59,931 nucleotides of DNA, from the NCBI GenBank assembly GCA_947593355.1, contig CANQDO010000002.1:1-59931 (forward strand), given 5' to 3'. The stretch is from an uncultured Clostridia bacterium. GTDB taxonomy: Bacteria > Bacillota > Clostridia > TANB77 > CAG-508. The notes under the pieces were generated by a model. The model worked only from the letters and a program-made list of their open reading frames with translations, had not been told where the DNA came from and ran no database searches. Positions 5,936 through 57,253 of this stretch are shown piece after piece (the stretch's first letter is position 1; every line of letters starts with the position of its first letter). Both the position numbers and the translations under genes were made by a program.

Positions 5936-6658
5936 ATGGCAACTAAAAACAAGTATTTAGTAGGATTAATCTTTTGCTTTTTAGCTTTTGTAGGAAGTTG
6001 TGCAAAATTTTGTAAATCAACACACTCTATAGTTAATGTAATAATTCTTTTTGTTATCTTAGTTTTAATTTTGGTGGTTGCAGGTTTTTGCTTTATCAAG
6101 TACAGGGAATTGGCATCAATAGATTTATATGCTGAGCGGAAAGCTAAAATTTCAGATTTAGAAGATCAGTACAACTTATTTCTTTTCGTTGTAGATTCTA
6201 TTATCGAAACTGATGTTAAGAATCTTTTATACGAAATAAATGAGCCTGGTCGACCTATTATGAAAGCAACTGTTCATAAGCATAATTATTTAATTACTTT
6301 TGAACAAATTCTTAATGATGTTAGCCAACAATCAGCATTTGTAGAGCCGGATGAGTTTTTAACGGCCTCATGTTTGATGTATAGCCTTTTAAGCGATCTT
6401 ACTGTTAAAGTTAAAGATTCTCACACCAAAAGGATTAGTTTATCCAACAAATTAAAAGCAACTATTGCTTTCGACTGTGCCTTGGAGGTTGTTCTTAACA
6501 CAGCAAATGTTACAAACGGCATTTCTTTAGAGCAAATAAAAGATATGCCAATATATGATAACATTGTTTGTACACTTATTAAAGATTATTGCGTATCTGG
6601 TATTATGTATGTATCGCAATTTGCAAATTTGCTTTATTTGCTAGTATGTCAAAACTAA
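5936..6658 (+). CDS. hypothetical membrane protein (two N-terminal TM helices)
   Basis: 240-aa ORF with ggagg RBS. Somewhat GC-richer than its neighbours. Contains an in-frame CGG (6137..6139) that is read without any frame change. Confidence 0.5.
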   Translation: MATKNKYLVGLIFCFLAFVGSCAKFCKSTHSIVNVIILFVILVLILVVAGFCFIKYRELASIDLYAERKAKISDLEDQYNLFLFVVDSIIETDVKNLLYEINEPGRPIMKATVHKHNYLITFEQILNDVSQQSAFVEPDEFLTASCLMYSLLSDLTVKVKDSHTKRISLSNKLKATIAFDCALEVVLNTANVTNGISLEQIKDMPIYDNIVCTLIKDYCVSGIMYVSQFANLLYLLVCQN

Positions 6659-6685
6659 AGTACTTATGTATAAGTACTTGATATG

Positions 6686-6716
6686 CCGAATGTTATTTAT
6701 ATAACATTCGGTTTTT
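6686..6716 (+). terminator. rho-independent terminator
   Basis: ccgaatgttat / ataacattcgg stem followed by ttttt. Confidence 0.65.
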
Positions 6717-6768
6717 CTATAAATTTTTTATATTTTTAGGAATATTTTGTAAAAATGTGAATATAATA

Positions 6769-6798
6769 TTGACAACAGTGCACTTTGAGATGTATAAT
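6769..6798 (+). promoter_or_regulatory. sigma-A type promoter of the (now split) chromosomal tRNA gene
   Basis: TTGACA (6769..6774), 18-nt spacer, TG-extended TATAAT (6791..6798). Lies about 17 nt upstream of the tRNA 5' end. Confidence 0.55.
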
Positions 6799-6814
6799 TA
6801 AAATTGTTATATAT

Positions 6815-6852
6815 CGCGGGGTGGAGCAGTTGGCAGCTCGTTGGGCTCATAA
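6815..6852 (+). pseudogene. 5' half of a chromosomal initiator-type tRNA-Met(CAT) gene, truncated after the anticodon loop (attL side)
   Basis: cgcggggtggagcagttggcagctcgttgggctcataa gives the acceptor 5' strand, D arm, anticodon stem 5' strand and loop with CAT at 6848..6850. The sequence after 6852 has no anticodon-stem complement or T arm. Confidence 0.85.
6838..6852 (+). repeat. attL core: 15-bp direct repeat tcgttgggctcataa shared with 58631..58645
   Basis: Exact 15/15 identity with the attR copy. The flanking bases differ on both sides. Confidence 0.85.
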
Positions 6853-6993
6853 AACAATTTTACTTCAAGTTGTCACAAAGTCCACAATCGTTGATACAGC
6901 TAAAAAATGTTGAAATTTCAATACTTTGCCCATTGTTTAATTAATCCTTTTATACTTATTTAAGGTTAATAAAATTTAATAAAAATTATTTGA

Positions 6994-7015
6994 TAAAGGG
7001 ACATTAAAGGGACAT
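6994..7015 (+). repeat. tandem 11-mer taaagggacatt-aaagggacat; candidate arm-type integrase binding site (left arm)
   Basis: The 22-nt string is identical to 58511..58532 in the same orientation, about 140 bp inside attL. Confidence 0.6.
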
Positions 7016-7042
7016 AAAAATTTAGCATTTAACTTTATATAT

Positions 7043-7118
7043 CGCGGGATGGAGCAGTTGGCAGCTCGCAGGGCTCATAACCCTGAGGTCGGAGGTTCGA
7101 GTCCTCCTCCCGCAACCA
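7043..7118 (+). tRNA. element-borne complete initiator-type tRNA-Met (anticodon CAT)
   Basis: 76-nt cloverleaf folded by hand. Has the C1:A72 mismatch, G29-G31:C39-C41 in the anticodon stem, CAT at 7076..7078, T loop ttcgagt and encoded CCA. It differs from the split host copy by compensated stem changes. Confidence 0.85.
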
Positions 7119-7122
7119 ATTC

Positions 7123-7156
7123 GAGGTTTTACTAGCAATAGTAAAATCTCTTTTTT
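7123..7156 (+). terminator. rho-independent terminator after the element tRNA
   Basis: gaggttttacta / tagtaaaatctc stem followed by tttttt. Confidence 0.6.
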
Positions 7157-7177
7157 AATATGTTTAAGGAGGTAAAA

Positions 7178-7867
7178 ATGAATGAAGAAAATCAAATTAG
7201 TTATTATTCAGTTATACCTGCAACCGTTAGATATAATGAGGAATTGAAAGCATCTGAAAAGCTATTATATGGTGAAATTACATCATTAACTAATAAGATG
7301 GGATATTGTTTTGCAACTAATAAGCACTTCTCAAACTTATATCATGTAGATCCTCATACGGTATCTCGTTGGATTTCTCATCTGGAGAAATTAGGATATA
7401 TTCGCATAGAACTAATAAGAAACGATAATAAAGAAATTATAGAAAGAAGAATATATATACAAGATACCCCCTATGTACAAAAAAATACATACCCCTATAC
7501 ATATAAAAGTACATACCCTATGTATAAAAATATACAAGATAATAATATAAAGATTAATATAGATGATTTATTTTATTTGATAAAGAATGGTAGCCATCAA
7601 ATTTCGGATAATTTTTATTCTATTTTAAACAGATTAGAATTTATTTATACAGATAAAATGCTCTCGCATATGCAATTTGATAAGATTTCAATGTTAAAAG
7701 AAATAATTTATGTTTTATATGATATATACAATAGTAATTTCCACTCTCTACTTTCTAAAACAAGTAGAGAGTGTTTATTAAATTTATACAATTTAGCTAA
7801 AATGCATAATCCCAATGATTTATTAAACTATTATAAAAAGATGATTATCAATACCTATAGAAGTTAG
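7178..7867 (+). CDS. HTH protein resembling RepA_N-type replication initiators
   Basis: aaggagg RBS. YYSVIPATVRYNEELKASEKLLYGEITSLTNKMGYCFATNKHFSNLYHVDPHTVSRWISHLEKLGYIRIE resembles the RepA_N / winged-HTH pattern. Family assignment is from memory. Confidence 0.5.
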   Translation: MNEENQISYYSVIPATVRYNEELKASEKLLYGEITSLTNKMGYCFATNKHFSNLYHVDPHTVSRWISHLEKLGYIRIELIRNDNKEIIERRIYIQDTPYVQKNTYPYTYKSTYPMYKNIQDNNIKINIDDLFYLIKNGSHQISDNFYSILNRLEFIYTDKMLSHMQFDKISMLKEIIYVLYDIYNSNFHSLLSKTSRECLLNLYNLAKMHNPNDLLNYYKKMIINTYRS

Positions 7868-7880
7868 AAGGAGCTTTCAT

Positions 7881-8129
7881 ATGACAAATTATTATATAGA
7901 TAATTTTGAAAACATTGTATCTTCCATCTTTTTTGTAAGTTTTAAGGTAATTGCCATCTTACTAATAATTTTACTTATATTATCTTTAATATTACTTGCA
8001 ATAGGATGTTTGATAAAATCACAAAAGATAAAATCTAAATTCTTAATGACTGTACCACTTTTATTGCTAGTAAATATATTTTTTCTAGCCCTCCCTTTAC
8101 TTTTTGTGTACCTTAAGAATTTGATTTAA
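7881..8129 (+). CDS. small two-TM membrane protein
   Basis: 82-aa ORF with ggag RBS and two long hydrophobic helices. Confidence 0.5.
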   Translation: MTNYYIDNFENIVSSIFFVSFKVIAILLIILLILSLILLAIGCLIKSQKIKSKFLMTVPLLLLVNIFFLALPLLFVYLKNLI

Positions 8130-8190
8130 TATTTTATAGCACTTCTTTATAATTTGCCCTTTTAGAAATTATAAAAGGAGTGATATCGTT

Positions 8191-8571
8191 ATGAGTTCAT
8201 CAAGAAGAAGAAATGAAACATTACCAATTTCTTCAAAACTTATACCTATTATTACAGTACTTGCATTAAAAACAAATGAATGTCTTGCAAGTGGAATAGG
8301 TACTGCAGAAGTACAAACTGCAACAGATAACATTAAAAGGGTTATCACAAGTATTGCTATGCCTTTAGGAGGTGTATTAATTTTTGCTAGTATTGTTATT
8401 GCCGCAATAAAAATGATTGCAAATGCCAATAATCCTCAAAAGCGTTCTGAAAGTATAGGAAGTTTAGCTTGGATTTGTGGGGGTGGTGTTATTTTAGGTG
8501 CATCTCTAATAATTGCAGGTATTATAATTAATATTGCAACAAATAATTCAGGTAACCTATTGGGTAGTTAG
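8191..8571 (+). CDS. VirB2/TrbC-like small membrane (pilin-like) T4SS protein
   Basis: 126 aa with a signal-like N-terminus ending LASG, then two hydrophobic helices separated by a short basic loop (NNPQKRSES). Sits immediately upstream of the PrgI/VirB3-like gene. Confidence 0.5.
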   Translation: MSSSRRRNETLPISSKLIPIITVLALKTNECLASGIGTAEVQTATDNIKRVITSIAMPLGGVLIFASIVIAAIKMIANANNPQKRSESIGSLAWICGGGVILGASLIIAGIIINIATNNSGNLLGS

Positions 8572-8581
8572 GAGGCAATAT

Positions 8582-8875
8582 ATGAAAGTTTTTAAAATTC
8601 CTTTTGATGTAAAAAGAGAAGAAAAAATATTCGGTGGCTATTTAAGTTTAAGGCAAGTGTTATATTTAATGCTTTCCTGTTCTAGTCTTATATTATTAGT
8701 TACACCTTTACCCCATTTAGTAATTTTTCTATTAATAGGGTTAATATCTACTTTCTTTTTGTTATGTGCCTTTCTAAAAATTAATGCGCAGAACTTTGAT
8801 AAGTTCTTTTTTTATGCTCTTAAATACTTATTTCGCAAGAAAAACTACATATATGAGAGGTGTAACAAATGTTAA
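8582..8875 (+). CDS. PrgI-family (VirB3-like) T4SS membrane protein
   Basis: ATG at 8582 after aggagg. MKVFKIPFDVKREEKIFGGYLSLRQVLYLM matches the PrgI-family N-terminal motif, followed by two TM helices. Confidence 0.65.
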   Translation: MKVFKIPFDVKREEKIFGGYLSLRQVLYLMLSCSSLILLVTPLPHLVIFLLIGLISTFFLLCAFLKINAQNFDKFFFYALKYLFRKKNYIYERCNKC

Positions 8876-9582
8876 TTATGATTATATTTTTAGTATTAAG
8901 TTTATTACTCATAATCGCAACGGTTATTTATATTAATAAGAAGAAAAGTAATGCAAATACTAATATGTCTAATAAAGAAACTAAAGAAAGAAGAAAAAAT
9001 AGAAAGTATTTATCTAATATATTAGAAATAAAAATTAAAGATAATATTATTTGTCTAGGAAATAGATATTCTATTATTTTAAAGTTAGGAAACTTAGACT
9101 ACAATATGTTGTCGGAAAGTGAACAAGATTCTGTAGAAAATGTATTAGTACAAACTTCTCTATCAATAGATTATCCTGTTCAATTTTTTTCTACAACAGA
9201 ATTTATTGATACAAGTAAAGTGATTTCATTAATTAAACAAAATAATGTAAATAGTATTCCTTTACGTAACTATCAAGATGCTCTAATTAAATATTTAGAG
9301 AATTTAATGGAAAATAGAACAATTTCCGTTGTAAAAAATTATTGCATTATAAGCTTTGATGGGTTATATGAAAATGCTATAGATGAATTAATTAGAAAAG
9401 CAACATCTTTTAAATTGAACTTATTAAGAGCAAAAATTCAATGTGAGATACTAAATGAAGATGAATTATATAATTTAATTTATAGAGAATTAAATAAAAA
9501 TTCTTCTATTAATATTAATCTTTTAAAAGAAGGAGGAAAAAACTTATATGTTGGGAAAAAACAAAAGGCAAAGGCAAAATAA
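8869..9582 (+). CDS. T4SS-associated membrane-anchored protein (function unknown)
   Basis: 237-aa ORF with N-terminal TM helix. It overlaps the VirB4 start by 35 nt, and that start has its own strong RBS. Confidence 0.45.
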   Translation: MLIMIIFLVLSLLLIIATVIYINKKKSNANTNMSNKETKERRKNRKYLSNILEIKIKDNIICLGNRYSIILKLGNLDYNMLSESEQDSVENVLVQTSLSIDYPVQFFSTTEFIDTSKVISLIKQNNVNSIPLRNYQDALIKYLENLMENRTISVVKNYCIISFDGLYENAIDELIRKATSFKLNLLRAKIQCEILNEDELYNLIYRELNKNSSININLLKEGGKNLYVGKKQKAKAK

Positions 9583-48209: not shown

Positions 48210-48584
48210 TTATGCAGCAACTAATTCTTGCATACAATATTGATTTTGTGATATTTTAGTTAAATCAATAGTATAAATAGGATAGACTGTAAAATTTACT
48301 ATACAAATTCCAACTTTTTCTTTTAGAATACCTAGTTTTTTTAACTGTGGTATTAATGTAGGTTTATATAAATAATCTACTACTATTTCATTATCTTCTA
48401 ATTTTTTTTGACTTTGTTGCAATGTTATATCTGCAAAATGAGCAGTTTCATTTGTATTCGGATCTACTCCAAATAAGCTTAACTGTAAATTTCCATTTGC
48501 ATACCTTGAAGTATGAATGAAACATCTTTTAAAAACCATTTCATACAATTCAAAATTAAAACCATTTCTCATAATAAAATACAT
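48210..48584 (-). CDS. DUF4313-like protein (first gene of the leftward operon)
   Basis: YANGNLQLSLFGVDPNTNETAHFADITL...VDYLYKPTLIPQLKKLGI fits the DUF4313 pattern. Ends in LVAA. The start could be 48584 or 48572. Confidence 0.5.
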   Translation of the reverse strand: MYFIMRNGFNFELYEMVFKRCFIHTSRYANGNLQLSLFGVDPNTNETAHFADITLQQSQKKLEDNEIVVDYLYKPTLIPQLKKLGILKEKVGICIVNFTVYPIYTIDLTKISQNQYCMQELVAA

Positions 48585-49022
48585 TCTCCTTTCTAAATTT
48601 TGTGTAAAAGATTTTTTGATAATCCTCCTTTCCTTTATTTTTGGGTAAAAAGAGAGAAAGTAATTAATTCTTTGTAGGGGGACATTTACATTGAATTTCT
48701 TACTTTCTTTTTATTTAAGGCACAATAAATAATCTATACATTTAATTGGCCTAAATCCCAATTTTTTGCTACATATAAAATATGTAGATGTACTGCTATT
48801 AACTAAAATTTAATAGCTATGCCACAAATATTTGTGGATAGTTATAGAAAATCTATAACATTATCTTTATACACACTTATATTTTATATTTTTTCGATTT
48901 TATATTCAATAAGCACATATAAAAAATTTTTTTCTTTAATTTTCAACATATTTCTTAACTTTTTTGTATAGTATTTTATTATAACTTAAAGAATTTTAAC
49001 TATATTTACATATTTTTTTATT

Positions 49023-51473
49023 CTATTGTATATCATTTCTTGATAATATTTTAGCTGGAGTTTTTCGAGTTATCTTATATAATGGTAATAATCCAACAAC
49101 TATATTAAATAAATACTCTATTAAAATTGAAATTCCAACTGTTGCTAAATTTATAACATATATTCTATCTATAAAAGGAATCATAGATACTTTGCTTAAT
49201 ATATATGACATAAGAATTATGCCTGGTATACTTGCTAATGTTGTAATTGAAATAATTTCTCCAAGAAACATTCTATATATATCTTTCCTTTTTACTCCTA
49301 TTGCCCTTAATATTCCAATTTCTTTTACTCTTGACATAAATGATGATCTTATCATTAAATAAATTTCTATTAAGGATATTGTAAGCATTATTGTTGCAAA
49401 AATTACTGCATTTATTATCTCATCTTTTTTACTATCTATATAATCTCTTTTATCTTTTTCATATCTATCTATAATATTTAAGTTATATTCATTTTTAAAT
49501 TGTGCAATTACATTTGACTTTTCTTTAGTATATATAGTAAATCCATTATTCTTTGAAATCACATTATATTTTACAGTGTTATTATTTACTAAATAATCTT
49601 GTTTATTTGTTTGACTGTCATAATATCCTACAACTACTAATTGCTTTCCGTTTATTTCCTTATCAATTATTTTATTGATTTTCATTTGTTCTGAATTACT
49701 CTTGTTTACAATTACTTCATAGTCATTTTCTGGATATCTACCTTTCGTTATAGTTATATCATCTAAATATAGTGCATAATCTTTAATATCAACTTCTGTT
49801 TCACTATCATTTGACCTATAAATTCCTATTCCAAGTTCATTCTTTTTCATATTGTTTAATATATTAACGAATAATGATTTTTTAACATATATTGAAGCAC
49901 TTAGCTTGTCTACAATACCTACTATTGTAAAGTCTTTCATTCCATCTATAGTAATCTTTCTATTTAAAAATTCCTCTTCACTTTTTATTCCCATTCCTTT
50001 AATTGATGAAAACTGTGAATTGAACATATTATCTACAACCTTCTTGTCCAAAACTACCTCATATTCATTTTGTGGGTATCTTCCTTTTACTATTTCATTC
50101 TCACTAATCTTATCAATATCTGTAAGCGAACCTGAACATTCATAAGAATATCGCGATAATTGATAATAATCGTCTATTTTCATTTTAAAACTTACATTAG
50201 TATCTCCTGGTATAATATAATCAACATTTTCTAATTGCTCATATTTTAAATAATCATCTACATTTACTTTCGCTATATCTACTTGTAGATAATTTTTATC
50301 AATTTTTATATAATCTGATTCTTTTATATTAATTATTCCTACAATATTACTTATACTATATACTATAAACATACTAGAAGCAAAAAAACCTAAAAGTAAA
50401 AATTTTTTTAATACTGTATAATTTAGTATTCTATTAAATCCATTTTTTATTGATTTTGCTATTCCATATATAGAACTATATTTTATTTTATATTTATTGT
50501 CTATAATTTCATTTATATTGTATTTATGTTGCTCATAAATGCTTTTATCTATTTTTTTATAATGTTCATTAATAAATTCTATAGGCGATTTTTCATCAAC
50601 TACTTCTACTTTTTTATTGTTTACTGATATATATATATTGTTATTTTTTAATACTATTTTTATATCAAGTTTTGAATCTCTATCATTTGAATAAACATCT
50701 ATATTAATATCTTTATCTTTTAAATTATTAATTTCTTTAAAATCCTTTAGGTATATTTTATTATCTAATCTATATTCCAAAGATTCATTAATGTTATTTT
50801 CATAATCTCTTATGATTTTTCCATCTTTTAATTCTATTATCCTTGTTGCGTAAAATTTTGCTAAACTAGTCTCATGAGTTACTAAAATTACTAATTTATC
50901 TTTTGAGATTGATTTTATAATATTCATTATTTCCAGTGAATTTTTACTATCCAAATTTCCAGTTGGCTCATCTGCTATTACAATGCTTGGATTTTTAACA
51001 ATAGCCCTCGCTATTGCTATCCTTTGCTTTTCTCCTCCAGATAACATTTTAGCTGGTCTATTTCTATATCTATACATATCTACAGCATCTAAAACGTATT
51101 TTACTCTTTTTGAAATTTCTTGCTTATTTTTTATTCCGTTTAATTTTAGACTAATTGCAACATTATCAAATACAGACATATTTTCTATTAGTTTATAATC
51201 TTGAAATATGTATCCAATATTTAAGCTTCTTATTTTATCTACAGTATATGTTCTTCTCTTTGTTATCTTTTTATTATTTATATAAATATTTCCGCTATTT
51301 ACCCTATCTAGTCCACCTATTACATTTAAAAGTGTTGTTTTTCCACTTCCTGATTCTCCTAAAATAGCAACTAATCCCTTATCTTCTAATTTTAATGAGG
51401 TATTATTAATAATATGAATTTCGTTTTTTCTTCTTCTATTAAAATATTTATTTATTTTTTCTATTTTTATCAT
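49023..51473 (-). CDS. fused ABC ATPase / FtsX-type permease (MacB-like exporter)
   Basis: Walker A GESGSGKTT, signature LSGGEKQR, Walker B IVIADEPT, and C-terminal FtsX-like TM bundle. Confidence 0.8.
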   Translation of the reverse strand: MIKIEKINKYFNRRRKNEIHIINNTSLKLEDKGLVAILGESGSGKTTLLNVIGGLDRVNSGNIYINNKKITKRRTYTVDKIRSLNIGYIFQDYKLIENMSVFDNVAISLKLNGIKNKQEISKRVKYVLDAVDMYRYRNRPAKMLSGGEKQRIAIARAIVKNPSIVIADEPTGNLDSKNSLEIMNIIKSISKDKLVILVTHETSLAKFYATRIIELKDGKIIRDYENNINESLEYRLDNKIYLKDFKEINNLKDKDINIDVYSNDRDSKLDIKIVLKNNNIYISVNNKKVEVVDEKSPIEFINEHYKKIDKSIYEQHKYNINEIIDNKYKIKYSSIYGIAKSIKNGFNRILNYTVLKKFLLLGFFASSMFIVYSISNIVGIINIKESDYIKIDKNYLQVDIAKVNVDDYLKYEQLENVDYIIPGDTNVSFKMKIDDYYQLSRYSYECSGSLTDIDKISENEIVKGRYPQNEYEVVLDKKVVDNMFNSQFSSIKGMGIKSEEEFLNRKITIDGMKDFTIVGIVDKLSASIYVKKSLFVNILNNMKKNELGIGIYRSNDSETEVDIKDYALYLDDITITKGRYPENDYEVIVNKSNSEQMKINKIIDKEINGKQLVVVGYYDSQTNKQDYLVNNNTVKYNVISKNNGFTIYTKEKSNVIAQFKNEYNLNIIDRYEKDKRDYIDSKKDEIINAVIFATIMLTISLIEIYLMIRSSFMSRVKEIGILRAIGVKRKDIYRMFLGEIISITTLASIPGIILMSYILSKVSMIPFIDRIYVINLATVGISILIEYLFNIVVGLLPLYKITRKTPAKILSRNDIQ

Positions 51474-51477
51474 ATTA

Positions 51478-53682
51478 TTACACCTCCTCATTATATGTGT
51501 TTATTGTAGTATTGTTAAATAATTTTTTTGTGAATTTTAATGATACAATTTTTGAAATTAATATTAGTAATATATATACTGCTAAATACTCTATTAATCC
51601 TAAATAATTACTTAAATTTGCAATATATACTATATTAATAAAATTCAATTTAATCACATAAATAAAGGTTAATAAGCTAACATATGCAAGAGTTGCAGTT
51701 ATAAATAGTTCTATATTTAATATAGCTTTAACATTTTTGCGCGTTGCTCCCAACATTCTTAACGTTGTATAATATATATTTCTTGATTTTAGTATTAATT
51801 TGATAACTAAATAAGAAATACCAAATAATACAATTACTAATATAATGGTCACTACTATTTTTATAATTTCCAATATTTTTTGATATATTTCAGTTTGATT
51901 TATTTTAAAATCGCTTACTTTTTTAGCTTCAATACCCATATTATTAAGTTGTATTATTGTTTCATCAATATTTTCTTCTTCTTTCACAAAAACACTAGAT
52001 TGATAAGATGGTTTATTATAAAGTGAATTATAGTCATCCATATTTATAAATATTCTATATCTAGATTCTTTATAATTGCTTAAACCTGTCATTTGTTTAA
52101 AATTCGATTCTTTATATGTATTTGATATATTTAAGTTTAGCTCTGCGTTATAATAAATATTGTTTACATATATATTTAAAGGTTGTCCTTTTATTCTGTT
52201 ATTTTTATATTGATATTTAAATTCATCATCTACTAGTGCTTTTCCTTTCTCTACTAGGTCACAAGGTTCTATTGAATATGATTGATATTTATTATTTAAT
52301 AATACTTTAACATTACTATAATTTTTATTTATCTGACTTCTTAACTCATTTAATATGCTCTCTGAAACATAAAATGTAGCATTATAATCACTTTCATCAT
52401 TATATTGAATTCCTACTATTGTTAAATTCTTTATTTCTTCATTAGTATATGAATTTATTGATTGAGATTTTAATATCGAAAAAGTTTTATTTATTACTTC
52501 ACTTTCAATCCAATTTATATCATAATGATTTTTATTTATTTTTATAATGACTTCGTCTTCATTTTGTGGCATTCTTCCTATATCAATAGATCCTCTTAAA
52601 TTATTTATATTTAGTAAGTTTCCATTAAATTTCACATTTCTACTTACTAAAGGAATATTACTGTCTAAGAAAATATCATCTTCTACTATATAATCAATAT
52701 TGGGTAAGTCCTTTATTTTTTTATAATCTTCAAGAGTAAAACTCGTTCTATCTGCTTTTTTTATTAGAACTCTATTTTCGGATAAGTCATCAAAAGCTAA
52801 ACTATATGAATAATCATCTTTTTCTTCTAACATTTGAAAACTTGCATATTCTACAAGAATAGCAGAACATATAAAAAAGAAAACTGAAAATAGTAATAAA
52901 AATTTTATTGGTATATTAAATGTATTTCTTATACCTAATCTGCATTTGTTAAATATATTTGTATTTTTATATACACTTTCCTTTATCTCTTTGTTATCAA
53001 TTACATTTTTTATTTCTATATTTTCAATTATTTTGCCATCATTCATTTTTATAATCTTAGTAGCATATTTCCTAAATTTTTCAATATTATGAGTTACAAC
53101 TACAACGAGTTTATCTTTAGCCACTTTCTTTAATACTTCTATAACATCTTTTGCAGAATTTGAATCTAAATTACCTGTTGGTTCATCGGCAACAATAATT
53201 GGTGTATCCTTTACAATTGCTCTAGCTATTGCTACTCTTTGTTTTTGACCTCCAGATAGTTTAGATACTTTTGTATTTTTAAATTCTGTAAGTCCTACTT
53301 GATTAATAGCCTCTAATATTTTATTTTTTACTCTTTTCTTTTTATAGCCATTAAGTAATAATACTAATTCTACATTTTGGTAAACAGTATAACTATTAAT
53401 TAAATTATAATTCTGAAAAATATTAGATATATATTTTTTTCTATATTCTTCGAAATCTCTTTCTACATAGTGGCTCGTTTCCTTGCCATTTATATACATT
53501 TCACCTTCTTCATAGCTATCAAGACCTGATATAACATTTAATAATGTACTTTTTCCACTTCCAGATTCTCCTGTTATTATGACAAATTCTCCTAATTTTA
53601 ACTCTAAATTTATTTTTGAAAAACCCGTAGAAATTATGCCATTATTATAATAAAATTTAGATACATTTTCTAATTTTAACAT
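51478..53682 (-). CDS. fused ABC ATPase / FtsX-type permease (MacB-like exporter), paralogue
   Basis: GESGSGKST, LSGGQKQR and IIVADEPT, plus a large extracytoplasmic domain and C-terminal TM helices. Confidence 0.8.
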   Translation of the reverse strand: MLKLENVSKFYYNNGIISTGFSKINLELKLGEFVIITGESGSGKSTLLNVISGLDSYEEGEMYINGKETSHYVERDFEEYRKKYISNIFQNYNLINSYTVYQNVELVLLLNGYKKKRVKNKILEAINQVGLTEFKNTKVSKLSGGQKQRVAIARAIVKDTPIIVADEPTGNLDSNSAKDVIEVLKKVAKDKLVVVVTHNIEKFRKYATKIIKMNDGKIIENIEIKNVIDNKEIKESVYKNTNIFNKCRLGIRNTFNIPIKFLLLFSVFFFICSAILVEYASFQMLEEKDDYSYSLAFDDLSENRVLIKKADRTSFTLEDYKKIKDLPNIDYIVEDDIFLDSNIPLVSRNVKFNGNLLNINNLRGSIDIGRMPQNEDEVIIKINKNHYDINWIESEVINKTFSILKSQSINSYTNEEIKNLTIVGIQYNDESDYNATFYVSESILNELRSQINKNYSNVKVLLNNKYQSYSIEPCDLVEKGKALVDDEFKYQYKNNRIKGQPLNIYVNNIYYNAELNLNISNTYKESNFKQMTGLSNYKESRYRIFINMDDYNSLYNKPSYQSSVFVKEEENIDETIIQLNNMGIEAKKVSDFKINQTEIYQKILEIIKIVVTIILVIVLFGISYLVIKLILKSRNIYYTTLRMLGATRKNVKAILNIELFITATLAYVSLLTFIYVIKLNFINIVYIANLSNYLGLIEYLAVYILLILISKIVSLKFTKKLFNNTTINTYNEEV

Positions 53683-53790
53683 TTTTTTCCCCTCTCAATA
53701 ATATATCTCTTATTAATGATATATCATAGAAGAATTATTATCAATGAGATATCTTCTCATTTTTTTACACTTATTTACTCTTTATTTTCT

Positions 53791-53841
53791 TTTTTTACTT
53801 TTTTCATTTTTTTTTTACTTTTTTCATTTTTTTTTTACTTT
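53791..53841. repeat. 20-bp tandem repeat (ttttttacttttttcatttt), 2.5 copies
   Basis: Two exact copies (53791..53830) plus a partial third, in the divergent intergenic region. Confidence 0.8.
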
Positions 53842-53946
53842 TAGTTTTATAATATATATATAGCTTATGTAATATGAATAGGTATTTATACTTGTTCTAT
53901 AAGCTAAAAACTATGGGAAATACTTTTTTTGTTAGGAGGCAAATTT

Positions 53947-54465
53947 ATGAAAAGGCATTTTAGTATTCTCATGGCACTCGTGATGCTTTTCAGTTGTCTG
54001 TGTGGCACAAGTGCCTTTGCGACAGAATCTGCAACTTCTGCCGAGGCTACAGTTTCTCCTCAATCAGCTGACAGCGAAATTCGCCCAATTGGTTCTTTGA
54101 GTGGTTATGGATCTCATTGGTATAATTCAGGCGAACCTGTTACTGGCAGTTTTACTGTCGAAGTTACTGGATCTTGGTGGATTGATGCACAACTTACAGT
54201 AAATATCGATAGTTTTACTGACAATACAGCCGTAACCATTATTGTATATAGACCTGATGGAACACAAGCTTGGTCTAGTATGGAAAATGGTAATAACTAT
54301 GGTTACGCTGGAGACATCACTATGGCTAATAGGGATGATTGGCATAATATTAAATTTGGTGATGGAGAAGTTGGCACATACACTGTTGAGTATTATATTC
54401 AAAATACTGATGATCTTTTGTTTAGCTATCCATCATCTGGGCGAATCAACTGTTGGATTTACTAA
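53947..54465 (+). CDS. small secreted beta-rich protein, family member 3
   Basis: aggagg RBS. Signal peptide MKRHFSILMALVMLFSCLCGTSAFA. GC-richer than its neighbours. The C-terminal pattern GTYTVEYYIQN...RINCWIY parallels members 1 and 2. Confidence 0.65.
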   Translation: MKRHFSILMALVMLFSCLCGTSAFATESATSAEATVSPQSADSEIRPIGSLSGYGSHWYNSGEPVTGSFTVEVTGSWWIDAQLTVNIDSFTDNTAVTIIVYRPDGTQAWSSMENGNNYGYAGDITMANRDDWHNIKFGDGEVGTYTVEYYIQNTDDLLFSYPSSGRINCWIY

Positions 54466-54518
54466 CTTTCATGCAACAAGCTAACTTGTAATTAGTCATT
54501 AATATTTCCCATAGTTTT

Positions 54519-54551
54519 CCGTAGACTCTGTTTTTCAGGTCTACGGTTTTT
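54519..54551 (+). terminator. rho-independent terminator
   Basis: ccgtagac / gtctacgg stem followed by ttttt. Confidence 0.7.
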
Positions 54552-54591
54552 ATTTACTATTTTTATACAAAAAAGATAGTAATCGAATTTA

Positions 54592-54930
54592 CTATCCCTT
54601 TTTCATATAACTTTTTATGGTGCAAATACACTCATAGTACATTTTTAGTTCATCTTTACTACATTTTTCTATTATATCAATTAAATTTTCTTTTACCTTC
54701 GTTTTTCTTTTTTCTCCTTTACCATATAAAATATAATCTGTATCAATACCTGTTGCACTAGAAATCATATCTAAAGAAGATAAGCTAATTAAAAATTCTC
54801 CTCGTTCTATTTGTCCAATATATCTTTCTGTTAAATCACATCTTTTAGCAAATTTTCCTCTTGTTTCATCGAAAATTTTTTCTCTTATCTTTCTAATTCT
54901 TGCCCCAATTACTATTTTATCTAATGCCAT
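54592..54930 (-). CDS. Xre-family HTH regulator
   Basis: IGARIRKIREKIFDETRGKFAKRCDLTERYIGQIERGEF is a typical HTH_3 pattern. Confidence 0.65.
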   Translation of the reverse strand: MALDKIVIGARIRKIREKIFDETRGKFAKRCDLTERYIGQIERGEFLISLSSLDMISSATGIDTDYILYGKGEKRKTKVKENLIDIIEKCSKDELKMYYECICTIKSYMKKG

Positions 54931-55369
54931 ATTGATACCTTCTCTCAATAAAGTAGTTTATATTAATATTTTACATTGTTTTGCTTAAACATTATATACT
55001 TTACAACTGTAAAAATTTGTACTTTGTCAAAGTATGTCGAATTTTGTTGAATAAGTTGTAACATACATTACACGCTTTTTAATATCTTATGCATTTAAAG
55101 ATTTTTTATACTATGCATCCAGTTTTCGACAAATTTTGCAAAAAAAATTTTGTATAATCCCTCGCAAGGGGCATAATGTTCCTGTTTAAAGTAGAACATA
55201 TCGCAAAAGAAGTATTTAAAATATACTTATGATAAATGATTTTACTTAAACAGTGTGTATTTATGCTCTTTTTTATTTATATAATTATTATAGGAAGGAG
55301 GATTTTTGTTTTTTATATGTTCCTTTTAGCAGGAATGTTAGTCCCAAATAAAATTTGGGAGGTATACAT

Positions 55370-55762
55370 ATGGAAAACAAAAAAAATTTTAAAAATGAGA
55401 GATTTGATAGTTATATTAATAAAATTATCATTTTCTCTTCTAAAGGTTTCTTCAAAAAGCAAATGAGTGTAATTAATAAAGAAAGAACTATTGTCGATGA
55501 TGAAGATTCCGCATCATTCTTAAATAAATTTCTCATGATAAATTATGCTCTTTCTTCCTTTGACGATGTTGAAAATAATTTAGAATTAAATAATGCCATA
55601 AAATCACTGACTGCTATTGAACAGTCAGTGATTTTTTTGTTGTTTAAAGAGGAATTATCACAAGAAGAAGCAGGTAGAATTTTAGAAATATGTTCTAAAT
55701 CCGTTAGTAGAATAAAATTACGAGCAATTAACAAATTAAAAAAATATTTGGAAGGAGATTAA
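55370..55762 (+). CDS. sigma-70 region-4-like regulator (Tn916 Orf7-like)
   Basis: LTAIEQSVIFLLFKEELSQEEAGRILEICSKSVSRIKLRAINKLKKYL is a region 4 HTH. Confidence 0.6.
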   Translation: MENKKNFKNERFDSYINKIIIFSSKGFFKKQMSVINKERTIVDDEDSASFLNKFLMINYALSSFDDVENNLELNNAIKSLTAIEQSVIFLLFKEELSQEEAGRILEICSKSVSRIKLRAINKLKKYLEGD

Positions 55763-55766
55763 ATAG

Positions 55767-55946
55767 ATGAAAAATAAAACTTTATATGAGTTGGGAAAAC
55801 TTGCACAAAATGGTAATCAAATGGCAATGTTAGAAATTATTGAAAGAAAGAGAAAAATGCTTAAAAGATATAGTTTTGGAGATGAAGATAGGTATCAATT
55901 TTTAGTTTTAAAACTAATCGAAGGAATAAAAAAATATAAATTTTAA
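55767..55946 (+). CDS. small helix-rich regulator (Tn916 Orf8-like position)
   Basis: 59-aa ORF, not in the supplied track. ATG 6 nt after ggagat. MKNKTLYELGKLAQNGNQMAMLEIIERKRKMLKRY... Confidence 0.4.
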   Translation: MKNKTLYELGKLAQNGNQMAMLEIIERKRKMLKRYSFGDEDRYQFLVLKLIEGIKKYKF

Positions 55947-56085
55947 AATTTATCGGTAGAAAATTTTAAATTACTTAAATGTATATATATCGAAGGGCAA
56001 ATTTTAAAGGAAGCACTATATTATAAGGACAGATGGGACAAGCTCTTATCTGTCCTCTACTAAATTATGAAAGGAGAATATAAAG

Positions 56086-56256
56086 ATGTTCTTAAAATTA
56101 TTATTGTTATTTTTTTCTCTTGCTATAGTTATATTAGTCTTTGATGTTATCATACCAAAAATCAAATTGAAATATAGACTATTTAAAGAATTAAGAATAA
56201 AGAGAAAAAGAGAAAAAGCATTTGCAAAAAGAATGAAAGAATTAGAAATTAAATAA
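56086..56256 (+). CDS. 56-aa single-TM peptide
   Basis: aaggag RBS. MFLKLLLLFFSLAIVILVFDVIIPK then a basic tail. Preferred over the antisense track ORF 56046..56276. Confidence 0.4.
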   Translation: MFLKLLLLFFSLAIVILVFDVIIPKIKLKYRLFKELRIKRKREKAFAKRMKELEIK

Positions 56257-56318
56257 ATTTCTAATAGTCTTGTCATTTCTGAAAAGTGTCGACAAATAAT
56301 TAACTAAAAGGTGATTAG

Positions 56319-56747
56319 ATGAATATGTCAAAAGAAAATATAATTAATTTATTTTACAATGAACATTTAAAAGTAAAAGAAATAGCAGAAAAAATACATA
56401 CTTCATCAGCATATATAACAAAAATTGTAAAACAAGATACTAGATATTTACAAGAAAAGAATTTAAGACAAGCAGTATCAAAAGACAAAAGGAAGAAAGA
56501 CCAAAATAAATTTATAAAAGAAAAAAGAGAATTAAAAAGAATTGATGATAATTACTCTTTTGTACAAGCTCAACATTTTCAAGCAAGTAAGGAATTATCA
56601 AAATCAAATAGATTATCTAATGAAAATTATAGAAAATGGAATTATAGTGCTTATAATTATAACCCTTTTAAAAAAAGATATGAATTTGATTCAAATCTTG
56701 GTCGTTCTTATGATGTACCTAAATATATAAAAGAGAGGTGTAATTAA
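56319..56747 (+). CDS. hypothetical DNA-binding protein (N-terminal HTH-like)
   Basis: LKVKEIAEKIHTSSAYITKIVK is HTH-like, followed by a basic middle region. Confidence 0.4.
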   Translation: MNMSKENIINLFYNEHLKVKEIAEKIHTSSAYITKIVKQDTRYLQEKNLRQAVSKDKRKKDQNKFIKEKRELKRIDDNYSFVQAQHFQASKELSKSNRLSNENYRKWNYSAYNYNPFKKRYEFDSNLGRSYDVPKYIKERCN

Positions 56748-56965
56748 TGAATAAAAAAGAAGCTATTGCTTATGCTCAAGTTACTTTAAATTTTATGCAA
56801 AGTTCTAAATATAATTGTAATATTTCTCCTAAAACATTTGCTATTGAAATGAAACAATGTTTTAAATTGTATCCTCGTAATATTATAGTTGGAATTGCTG
56901 AAGCTCAATGCTTTGCTAAAGACTACTCACAAAATATAAAAAATGGAAGTGATACTAATGAGTGA
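56747..56965 (+). CDS. hypothetical small protein
   Basis: 72-aa ORF whose start overlaps the upstream stop. Confidence 0.35.
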   Translation: MNKKEAIAYAQVTLNFMQSSKYNCNISPKTFAIEMKQCFKLYPRNIIVGIAEAQCFAKDYSQNIKNGSDTNE

Positions 56966-57149
56966 ACTAGAAAAAATGGGATTAAATATTAGTGAAGCAG
57001 CATCTTTGATGGGAATTAGTAAAAATTTAATGGCTGAATTGGTAAAATACCCTGATTTTCCATGCATCAAATTTAAAAGGAGAATTGTAATAAATAAAAA
57101 AATGTTGCAAGAATGGTTTGACCAAAATTCAGGTAGATTTTTTGTATAA
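56958..57149 (+). CDS. xis: excisionase-family HTH protein
   Basis: LNISEAASLMGISKNLMAELVKYPDFPCIKFKRRIVINKKMLQEWF is the MerR-like excisionase pattern. Lies directly upstream of int. Confidence 0.7.
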   Translation: MSELEKMGLNISEAASLMGISKNLMAELVKYPDFPCIKFKRRIVINKKMLQEWFDQNSGRFFV

Positions 57150-57253
57150 TATTGTACTTTAGAAAAAATTATTTTATAATGAGAATATCAGATGCTAATT
57201 TTTTATGTTTTCCATATATATATGATGTTCTCTTTTTTTGGAGGTGAACACAA

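Follow-up and report, generated by a model that had tools for sequence, protein, structure and literature searches.

A conjugative-type element of an uncultured Clostridia bacterium splits an initiator tRNA gene and probably substitutes its own copy behind the host promoter

The window analyzed here, a stretch of 59,931 bases from an uncultured Clostridia bacterium (assembly GCA_947593355.1, contig CANQDO010000002.1, positions 1 to 59,931), contains an integrated element of 51,793 bp (6853..58645) flanked by an exact 15-bp repeat, TCGTTGGGCTCATAA, which is the longest exact repeat common to both junctions. The repeat lies inside a host initiator tRNA gene (tRNA-fMet) and, together with the tyrosine integrase domains that Pfam identified in the element, places the bacterial attachment site (attB) over that gene. 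The element divides the host gene at the anticodon loop, neither of its junctions (attL and attR) rebuilds a tRNA, and a complete initiator tRNA gene stands within the element, 190 bp inward of attL (Table 1).

The original host unit comprised a promoter, a single tRNA-fMet gene and a terminator, all of which are still recognizable on the two sides of the element. The 3' limit of the host 5' half is the final base of the anticodon loop, and the DNA that follows it, AACAATTTTACTT..., lacks a T arm. At the other end, the acceptor strand of the host 3' part (CCCCGCA) pairs with the CGCGGGG of the host 5' half, unlike the corresponding strand of the element allele (TCCCGCA). Joining the junctions in silico at the repeat yielded a 76-nt tRNA-Met that ARAGORN accepted. 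In the whole window, ARAGORN reported one tRNA only, the tRNA-Met(CAT) carried by the element. The program found none in the attL region alone (6700..7000) and, with default settings, none in the attR region (58500..58800), where a lowered threshold returned only a spurious 88-nt call on the minus strand. Rfam, which was applied to attL while attR was judged by ARAGORN, gave nothing at 6815..6900 even at E<=1 and scored only 7043..7115 as tRNA. The original prediction, made from the sequence of the window, had described an initiator tRNA gene split in the anticodon loop and left unrepaired, with the 5' half ending at the last loop base and the 3' half at the far end of the element. The sequence bears this out, as do the ARAGORN runs that it had proposed for the window and the excised junction, and neither program folds the region behind the 5' half into a tRNA.

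Table 1. Features of the integrated element and of the split host tRNA-fMet unit in the window.
Feature	Coordinates	Strand	Basis or remarks
Terminator of the gene preceding the host tRNA promoter	6685..6712		
Host tRNA-fMet promoter	6769..6798	+	TTGACA-18-TATAAT, 12/12 match to consensus
Orphan host tRNA 5' half, positions 1-38	6815..6852	+	CGCGGGGTGGAGCAGTTGGCAGCTCGTTGGGCTCATAA; rejoins with 58646..58683
15-bp core, left copy (attL crossover region)	6838..6852	+	Longest exact repeat between the junctions
Element P' arm, 190 bp	6853..7042	+	Homologous arm at 31 other junctions
Arm-type doublet AAAGGGACATTAAAGGGACA, P' arm	6995..7014	+	Identical 20-mer in P arm
Complete element-borne initiator tRNA (tRNA-fMet, CAT)	7043..7118	+	ARAGORN; Rfam tRNA, 63.3 bits
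Intrinsic terminator right behind the element tRNA	7123..7156	+	12-bp stem and T run
First element gene, HTH_36 protein	7160..7867	+	Pfam; homologues with 44-74% identity follow the tRNA at 21 related loci
Conjugation and surface module: type IV secretion system (T4SS) pilin-like proteins, VirB4-like fragments, sortase, 1659-aa SpaA-repeat adhesin, split VirD4-like coupling protein	8191..27187	+	Pfam
ArdC-like, PcfJ-like, SSB and Gp3-like recombination directionality factor (RDF) domain proteins	38347..48188	-	Pfam
Excisionase-like HTH_17 protein, 63 aa	56958..57149	+	Pfam PF12728, E 8e-7; also called in an independent assembly
Tyrosine integrase, 415 aa	57254..58501	+	Pfam Phage_integrase, Phage_int_SAM_3
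Arm-type doublet AAAGGGACATTAAAGGGACA, P arm	58512..58531	+	About 100 bp from the core in 13/13 attR-type loci
15-bp core, right copy (attR)	58631..58645	+	Exact repeat
Orphan host tRNA 3' part, positions 39-76	58646..58683	+	CCCAAAGG...CCCCGCAACCA
Original terminator of the host tRNA gene	58695..58728	+	10-bp stem and T run

The hallmarks of initiator tRNAs are present in the element gene as well as in the rejoined host gene: C1 opposite A72, G29-G31 paired with C39-C41, an A11:T24 pair and the anticodon CAT. The two alleles have the same loops and the same identity positions and differ only by compensated stem pairs, namely at pair 7:66 (G:C in the host and A:T in the element), at 27-28:42-43 (TT/AA and CA/TG, respectively) and in the T stem (GTAAG/CTTAC and GGAGG/CCTCC, respectively). 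Thus, the element brings a full initiator tRNA of a distinct allele just inside attL, as predicted. To this we can add an alignment of 15 distinct element alleles from related loci, in which 99.3% of the cells were standard-paired and 7 pairs had changed on both sides. None of 500 shuffles reached the covariation score of this alignment, and sliding its register lowered the paired share to about 45-49%; the initiator identity positions were invariant throughout. This pattern indicates that the element tRNAs are under selection for their fold, with the four helices kept via compensatory changes.

A tRNA with its own stem sequence could also be cargo that happens to lie close to attL, carried for protection against nucleases that cut initiator tRNAs or, as suggested in the original prediction, for tuning translation. 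The divergence of the stems from the host allele would fit such a role, and selection of phage tRNAs for anti-defence has been suggested as a possibility (PMC10865867). Yet the loops and identity positions are those of the host gene, with differences confined to compensated stem pairs, which speaks against translation tuning, and several relatives carry an element allele whose 5' half is identical to that of the host, the exact host core included. The position of the tRNA and its spacing to the core are, moreover, fixed across the family, and our scans of the element identified no toxin or nuclease gene. We therefore regard a cargo role as very unlikely.

The surroundings of the element tRNA suggest how it could be expressed. 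No terminator-like site separates the host promoter from the element tRNA in the window, and no recognizable promoter of its own lies near the gene there. The host promoter was previously proposed to point into the element, towards both its tRNA and its T4SS operon. The first part of this proposal stands, given the perfect promoter and the uninterrupted path to the tRNA, but the T4SS operon is an unlikely beneficiary because a terminator with a 12-bp stem and a T run (7123..7150) directly follows the element tRNA. In three other Clostridia assemblies (L176-L178), a normal gene of the chromosome, with a promoter, has the allele type of the window (CAGGG/CCCTG anticodon stem, GGAGG T stem), and the stem of the element terminator, GAG(A/G)TTTTACT..AGTAAAATCTC, is also found in the terminator of the chromosomal tRNA-fMet of one of them (L178). 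Because the allele type is chromosomal elsewhere and the terminator stem matches in one case, these similarities suggest that the element captured a tRNA gene and its terminator without the promoter.

Using the 20-bp doublet AAAGGGACATTAAAGGGACA as the query against one genome per species, we retrieved 46 stretches of genome contigs, most of which were attL or attR junctions of one element family. The same attL layout recurred at 31 junctions from 31 GTDB representative assemblies of uncultured Clostridia, whose host promoter flanks all differed. In order, it consists of a promoter specific to the species, the 5' half of tRNA-fMet with CTCATAA at its end, the homologous arm, the doublet, about 27 nt and then tRNA-fMet. 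The spacing from the core to the motif was near-constant at these junctions (151-153 nt). Thirteen attR loci presented the integrase, the doublet, about 100 bp, GGGCTCATAA and the tRNA 3' part, and in-silico joining produced a valid tRNA in five further assemblies with both ends. Four species-level genomes (L133, L147, L155 and L162) share an identical arm and tRNA behind differing host flanks, and the tRNA therefore moves with the element. Judged from these junctions, the layout is a family trait and a standard design, not an accident.

The family also bears on whether the element could simply have entered the upstream member of a tandem pair of tRNA-fMet genes, leaving a chromosomal gene at 7043..7118. 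Tandem tRNA-fMet genes do exist in some genomes (e.g., L054 and L014), and the chromosomal occurrences of the window allele type described above would be in line with such an origin. However, a tandem pair would put the second gene beyond attR, and only a terminator follows position 58683. The 190-bp arm, the tRNA and the HTH_36 gene form one conserved block behind 31 unrelated host flanks, and the doublet beside the tRNA recurs beside the integrase. Further, the syntenic locus of Clostridium sp. CAG:571 (PBP5-like, ComEA-like, tRNA-fMet) carries a single, uninterrupted tRNA-fMet and not a tandem pair. A chromosomal origin of 7043..7118 without the element, which the original prediction had named as the result that would overturn it, is hardly credible on this evidence, as the tRNA always accompanied the arm in the 31 other assemblies. 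To find an empty site in the same species, we looked up both flanking host proteins; every site retrieved was either occupied or on a contig broken at the tRNA, and all of them came from a single study.

The attachment site of the element (attP) has a defined anatomy. The core GGGCTCATAA is common to the attL and attR junctions of the family, except for the attL of L142 (GGGTTCATAA), and extends to 15 identical bp in the window. It is flanked by arms bearing AAAGGGACA doublets; in the window, one copy of the doublet AAAGGGACATTAAAGGGACA lies 142 bp to the right of the left core, and a second copy lies to the left of the right core at a distance of about 100 bp. The P' arm starts with a degenerate mimic of the anticodon stem (AACAAT in the window, NCCGAG in most relatives), lacks a T arm and an acceptor strand, and contains no terminator-like site. 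CTCGGG-CTCATAA and NCCGAG form an imperfect inverted repeat that mimics an anticodon stem-loop, as would be expected if two core-type sites flanked an overlap of 7 bp. We considered that the arm might be a decayed tRNA 3' half and rejected this origin, as the first 38 nt did not score above shuffles or shifted registers in most of 22 distinct arms; the resemblance to tRNA is limited to NCCGAG and an AACC whose placement is loose, and nothing beyond the first 5-6 nt is significant. Hence the window attP does not contain the 3' portion of the target tRNA that characterizes classical restoring elements. Because the attP of the family never carries a tRNA 3' half, splitting is built into it, and both halves of the host gene are dead after integration.

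The tRNA of most relatives is followed by an inverted pair (AAAGGGAT/GTCCCTTT), so the gene sits between arm-type repeats, inside attP. The inverted arm-motif pair AAAGGGATGTCCCTTT lies directly behind the element tRNA in, for example, L079 (1680..1640, minus strand) and is absent at 7119..7160 of the window. Scans of viral contigs (one unrelated match) and metagenome contigs yielded no clear circular attP; one locus (L131) has the order P arm, core, P' arm and tRNA in tandem. Two loci (L206 3470..2900, minus strand, and L212) show only the side comprising core, P' arm and tRNA. There, ...ACTTACGGGCTCATAA precedes the P' arm in place of a tRNA 5' half, and a GTCACAC doublet and a Spo0A-like gene lie upstream of that sequence; the arrangement would be either a tandem with another type of element or a secondary site.

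The gene content assigns the window element to the conjugative type. Like integrative and conjugative elements, it has an integrase gene and an excisionase-like gene together at one end and is bounded on both sides by site-specific repeats. In place of what defines a temperate phage, the element encodes a T4SS pilin, VirB4- and VirD4-like proteins, PcfJ, ArdC, and a sortase with its adhesin, and none of the 50 open reading frames (ORFs) scanned belonged to capsid, terminase or tail families. No relaxase was identified among the element ORFs scanned with Pfam. The closest solved structure to the integrase is Tn1549 Int (E 5e-9), and integrases 72-78% identical to the window integrase adjoin attR in 11 related loci; we found no close characterized relatives, phage integrases being less than 30% identical. 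The VirD4-like gene is broken into two ORFs that adjoin each other, and the sole VirB4-like ORF recognized is a partial one (window 8869..11163, 22229..24872). The split of the VirD4-like gene recurs in two independent short-read assemblies (ERZ27249453 and ERZ27249239), and it is therefore real.

We propose that the locus probably reflects a split-and-substitute integration by a conjugative-type element whose tRNA is driven by the host promoter. The element would recombine into the anticodon loop of the single-gene tRNA-fMet unit of the host, and its own tRNA would come to lie immediately behind the strong tRNA promoter of the host, without an intervening terminator. A single precursor transcript, begun at this promoter, would then span the orphan half, the arm and the element tRNA, and the normal 5' and 3' tRNA-processing nucleases would release from it a functional initiator tRNA in replacement of the split gene. 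In this way, the element would apparently capture the host promoter. As a side effect, an intact target would be recreated, so that later elements could insert and bring their own copy. We infer the co-transcription, the processing and the need for an element copy from the arrangement of the sites.

Several observations weigh against this proposal. Most relatives carry a weak but conserved promoter-like sequence, GGGACA-18-CACAAT (8/12), 14 nt upstream of the tRNA and overlapping the doublet, which makes independent transcription of the element tRNA possible in them; the window does not have this site. A metagenomic locus (L204, 2630..7008) has the host 5' half followed by an arm of the family type with the doublet, and no tRNA in the next 4.4 kb, and other elements at the same site (L005 and L038) have no tRNA nearby. 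The element copy is therefore not indispensable everywhere. Finally, the window element is probably no longer self-transmissible, because its coupling-protein gene is split and the VirB4-like gene is only partially recognized.

The same exceptions matter for the idea of addiction, in which the host is made dependent on the element so that its loss would be lethal; the original prediction had called the arrangement addiction-like. Five relatives lend it some weight: their orphan 5' halves are mutated at otherwise invariant positions (L142 C3T, L139 C3A, L135 C3T, L145 C1T and L114 G12A), and in L142 (~6275..6240, minus strand) the core has also changed, to GGGTTCATAA. Excision at these loci would not restore a good gene because of the mutations, and the elements appear locked in, with the host gene irreversibly lost. 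Both halves are intact in the window, however, and precise excision rebuilds the host gene, while L204 has the arm without any tRNA. Addiction as the purpose of the arrangement is on balance quite improbable; dependence, where present, looks like a late consequence of decay and not a designed function.

Evidence for repeated use of the target comes from stacks of attachment sites at three loci. L149 (1950..2800, plus strand) has three successive split 5' parts followed by one complete tRNA, and L136 (2800..2100, minus strand) has two split parts followed by one complete tRNA. The arms behind the split parts differ from one another, and every arm has a repeat doublet to itself, the motifs being AAAGGGACA, GGGGACTA, TTGACGAC and CCAACTATT. 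Each stack ends in one complete tRNA and a hairpin, and no terminator-like site precedes the last tRNA in L149 or L136. At the third locus, L213, the element tRNA has itself been interrupted by another arm of this family. As the arms and doublets within the stacks differ, at least three other attachment-site lineages use the same trick at tRNA-fMet. The order of the parts indicates that the stacks are a natural record of successive invasions, in which later arrivals split the tRNA of the previous element and brought their own. One could argue from the stacks that the complete tRNA is selected mainly as a portable landing pad that recreates attB for further elements. The resident, however, gains no obvious benefit from being split by a newcomer, classical elements also recreate attB as a by-product, and some element tRNAs hold a group I intron-like insert that breaks the core. 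A landing pad as the main object of selection is accordingly unlikely.

The intron-like inserts, of about 245 nt, lie after the CAT of some element tRNA-fMet genes and are followed by the tRNA 3' part (L129 1704..1950, L131 1915..2180 and L195 248..510, and also L201 and L202). The insert of L129 matched the Rfam family RF00028 (86.1 bits); a normal loop would require AACCC, which begins 7 nt beyond the terminal G of the Rfam match, so the splice junctions and the function of the insert are putative. By breaking the integration core, such an insert might protect the tRNA from later elements. We rejected an earlier interpretation of the "AAAATTGTGGCTC" junction as a separate small element, as it is a group I intron-like insert inside an element tRNA. 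We also discarded self-immunity through an altered anticodon stem, since relatives carry the exact host core and element tRNAs are split by later elements. The intron-bearing locus L131 (1..6675) contains a mini element of ~4.4 kb, with an arm, the intron-containing tRNA, three ORFs, a 435-aa integrase and a P arm. It lies in tandem with a second family element, and the tRNA of this second element, at 6393..6468, is a mismatched hybrid (A7.C66, A27.A43). Another mini element, in L125, starts from an attL at 1303 and encodes an integrase of the family at 6975..8000.

More speculatively, many gut Clostridia may no longer rely on a host gene for the working initiator tRNA at this locus. The gene in use may instead be promoter-less and passed on by mobile elements, with every newcomer splitting the previous copy and installing its own behind the same promoter. 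We hold this to be possible, though doubtful. If true, once the orphan halves decay, as in the five species above, translation initiation of the lineage would depend on a gene from a mobile element.

Elements that target tRNA genes are reportedly divided into classes by sublocation, including crossover in the anticodon loop, in a scheme attributed to Williams in 2002. The window element shares with the classical anticodon-loop elements the crossover in the loop, an integrase beside attP, arm-type repeats on both sides and a symmetric anticodon stem as the likely core-type binding sites. In the attP of the Haemophilus phage HP1, tRNA sequence continues beyond the crossover and the tRNA operon is functional after integration. 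HP1 rebuilds the split tRNA gene at the junction, and the window element does not. The usual rule, as outlined in the Islander paper, is that island sequence restores the split tRNA gene (PMC4383910). By that outline, the attP of classical elements includes the 3' part of the tRNA (PMC4383910), whereas the window element has a stem mimic of about 5-6 nt in its place.

The closest parallel is "tRNA-dependent lysogeny" in actinobacteriophages such as Fionnbharth, LeBron and Gaia (Guerrero-Bustamante & Hatfull, mBio 2024; PMC10865867). These phages use tyrosine integrases and cores of 8-17 bp in tRNA-Lys, tRNA-Ile2 and tRNA-Leu genes, no junction rebuilds the tRNA, and experiments with mycobacteriophages showed that the phage-encoded cognate tRNA is needed for survival of the lysogen (PMC10865867). 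Thus, the arrangement has more precedent than the original prediction implied, as the same logic had been demonstrated for mycobacteriophages in 2024. A prophage of Lactobacillus johnsonii, Lj965, is cited in the same paper as encoding a cognate tRNA and as leaving the tRNA at its junction unrebuilt (PMC10865867); on that citation it differs from the window element in being a prophage and not of conjugative type. The window element has the three structural marks of tRNA-dependent lysogeny, a tyrosine integrase with attB in a tRNA gene, a short core (15 bp here) and an element-borne cognate tRNA, although it is not a phage. It differs from the published cases, phages of Actinobacteria, in being a conjugative-type element with T4SS genes in Clostridia and in targeting the initiator tRNA, which is outside the published isotypes (Lys, Ile2 and Leu). 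In addition, the tRNA of its family lies inside the P' arm at a fixed distance of ~190 bp from the crossover, has no recognizable promoter and lands behind the host promoter, and the family forms relay stacks of successive elements. In a limited literature search, we found no account of a split-and-substitute scheme that involves a conjugative element or an initiator tRNA. What is new relative to the published phage principle is therefore the conjugative element, the initiator tRNA, the apparent capture of the host promoter and the relay stacking.

If our proposal is correct, a mechanism known only from actinobacteriophages would extend to conjugative elements of abundant uncultured gut Clostridia, with the one tRNA needed by every protein synthesis event as its target. 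Splitting and substituting can evidently be a stable, family-wide design of the attachment site, present in at least 31 species-level genomes and with apparent capture of the host promoter. Such elements will be misplaced or missed by island finders that rely on a regenerated tRNA and a displaced fragment, and tRNA annotation will count their tRNA genes as host genes.

Three regions of the window element hold surface and cargo genes (14506..21040, 28425..36066 and 49023..53682). They include the sortase and the 1659-aa adhesin, which has 12 SpaA repeats. Two ABC-transporter loci, one of which includes an FtsX-type permease, are present as well, as are a Spo0A-like response regulator and an extracytoplasmic function (ECF)-type sigma factor accompanied by a DUF4179 protein. 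Among the relatives, loci L038 and L162 are on the same contig (CAMOBD010000001.1), where the same 26-nt promoter/leader and 5' half occur twice, one copy followed by the family arm and the other by unrelated DNA (TTCTTCTTTT...). This duplicate could represent either two paralogous occupied host genes or an element carrying the 5' half.

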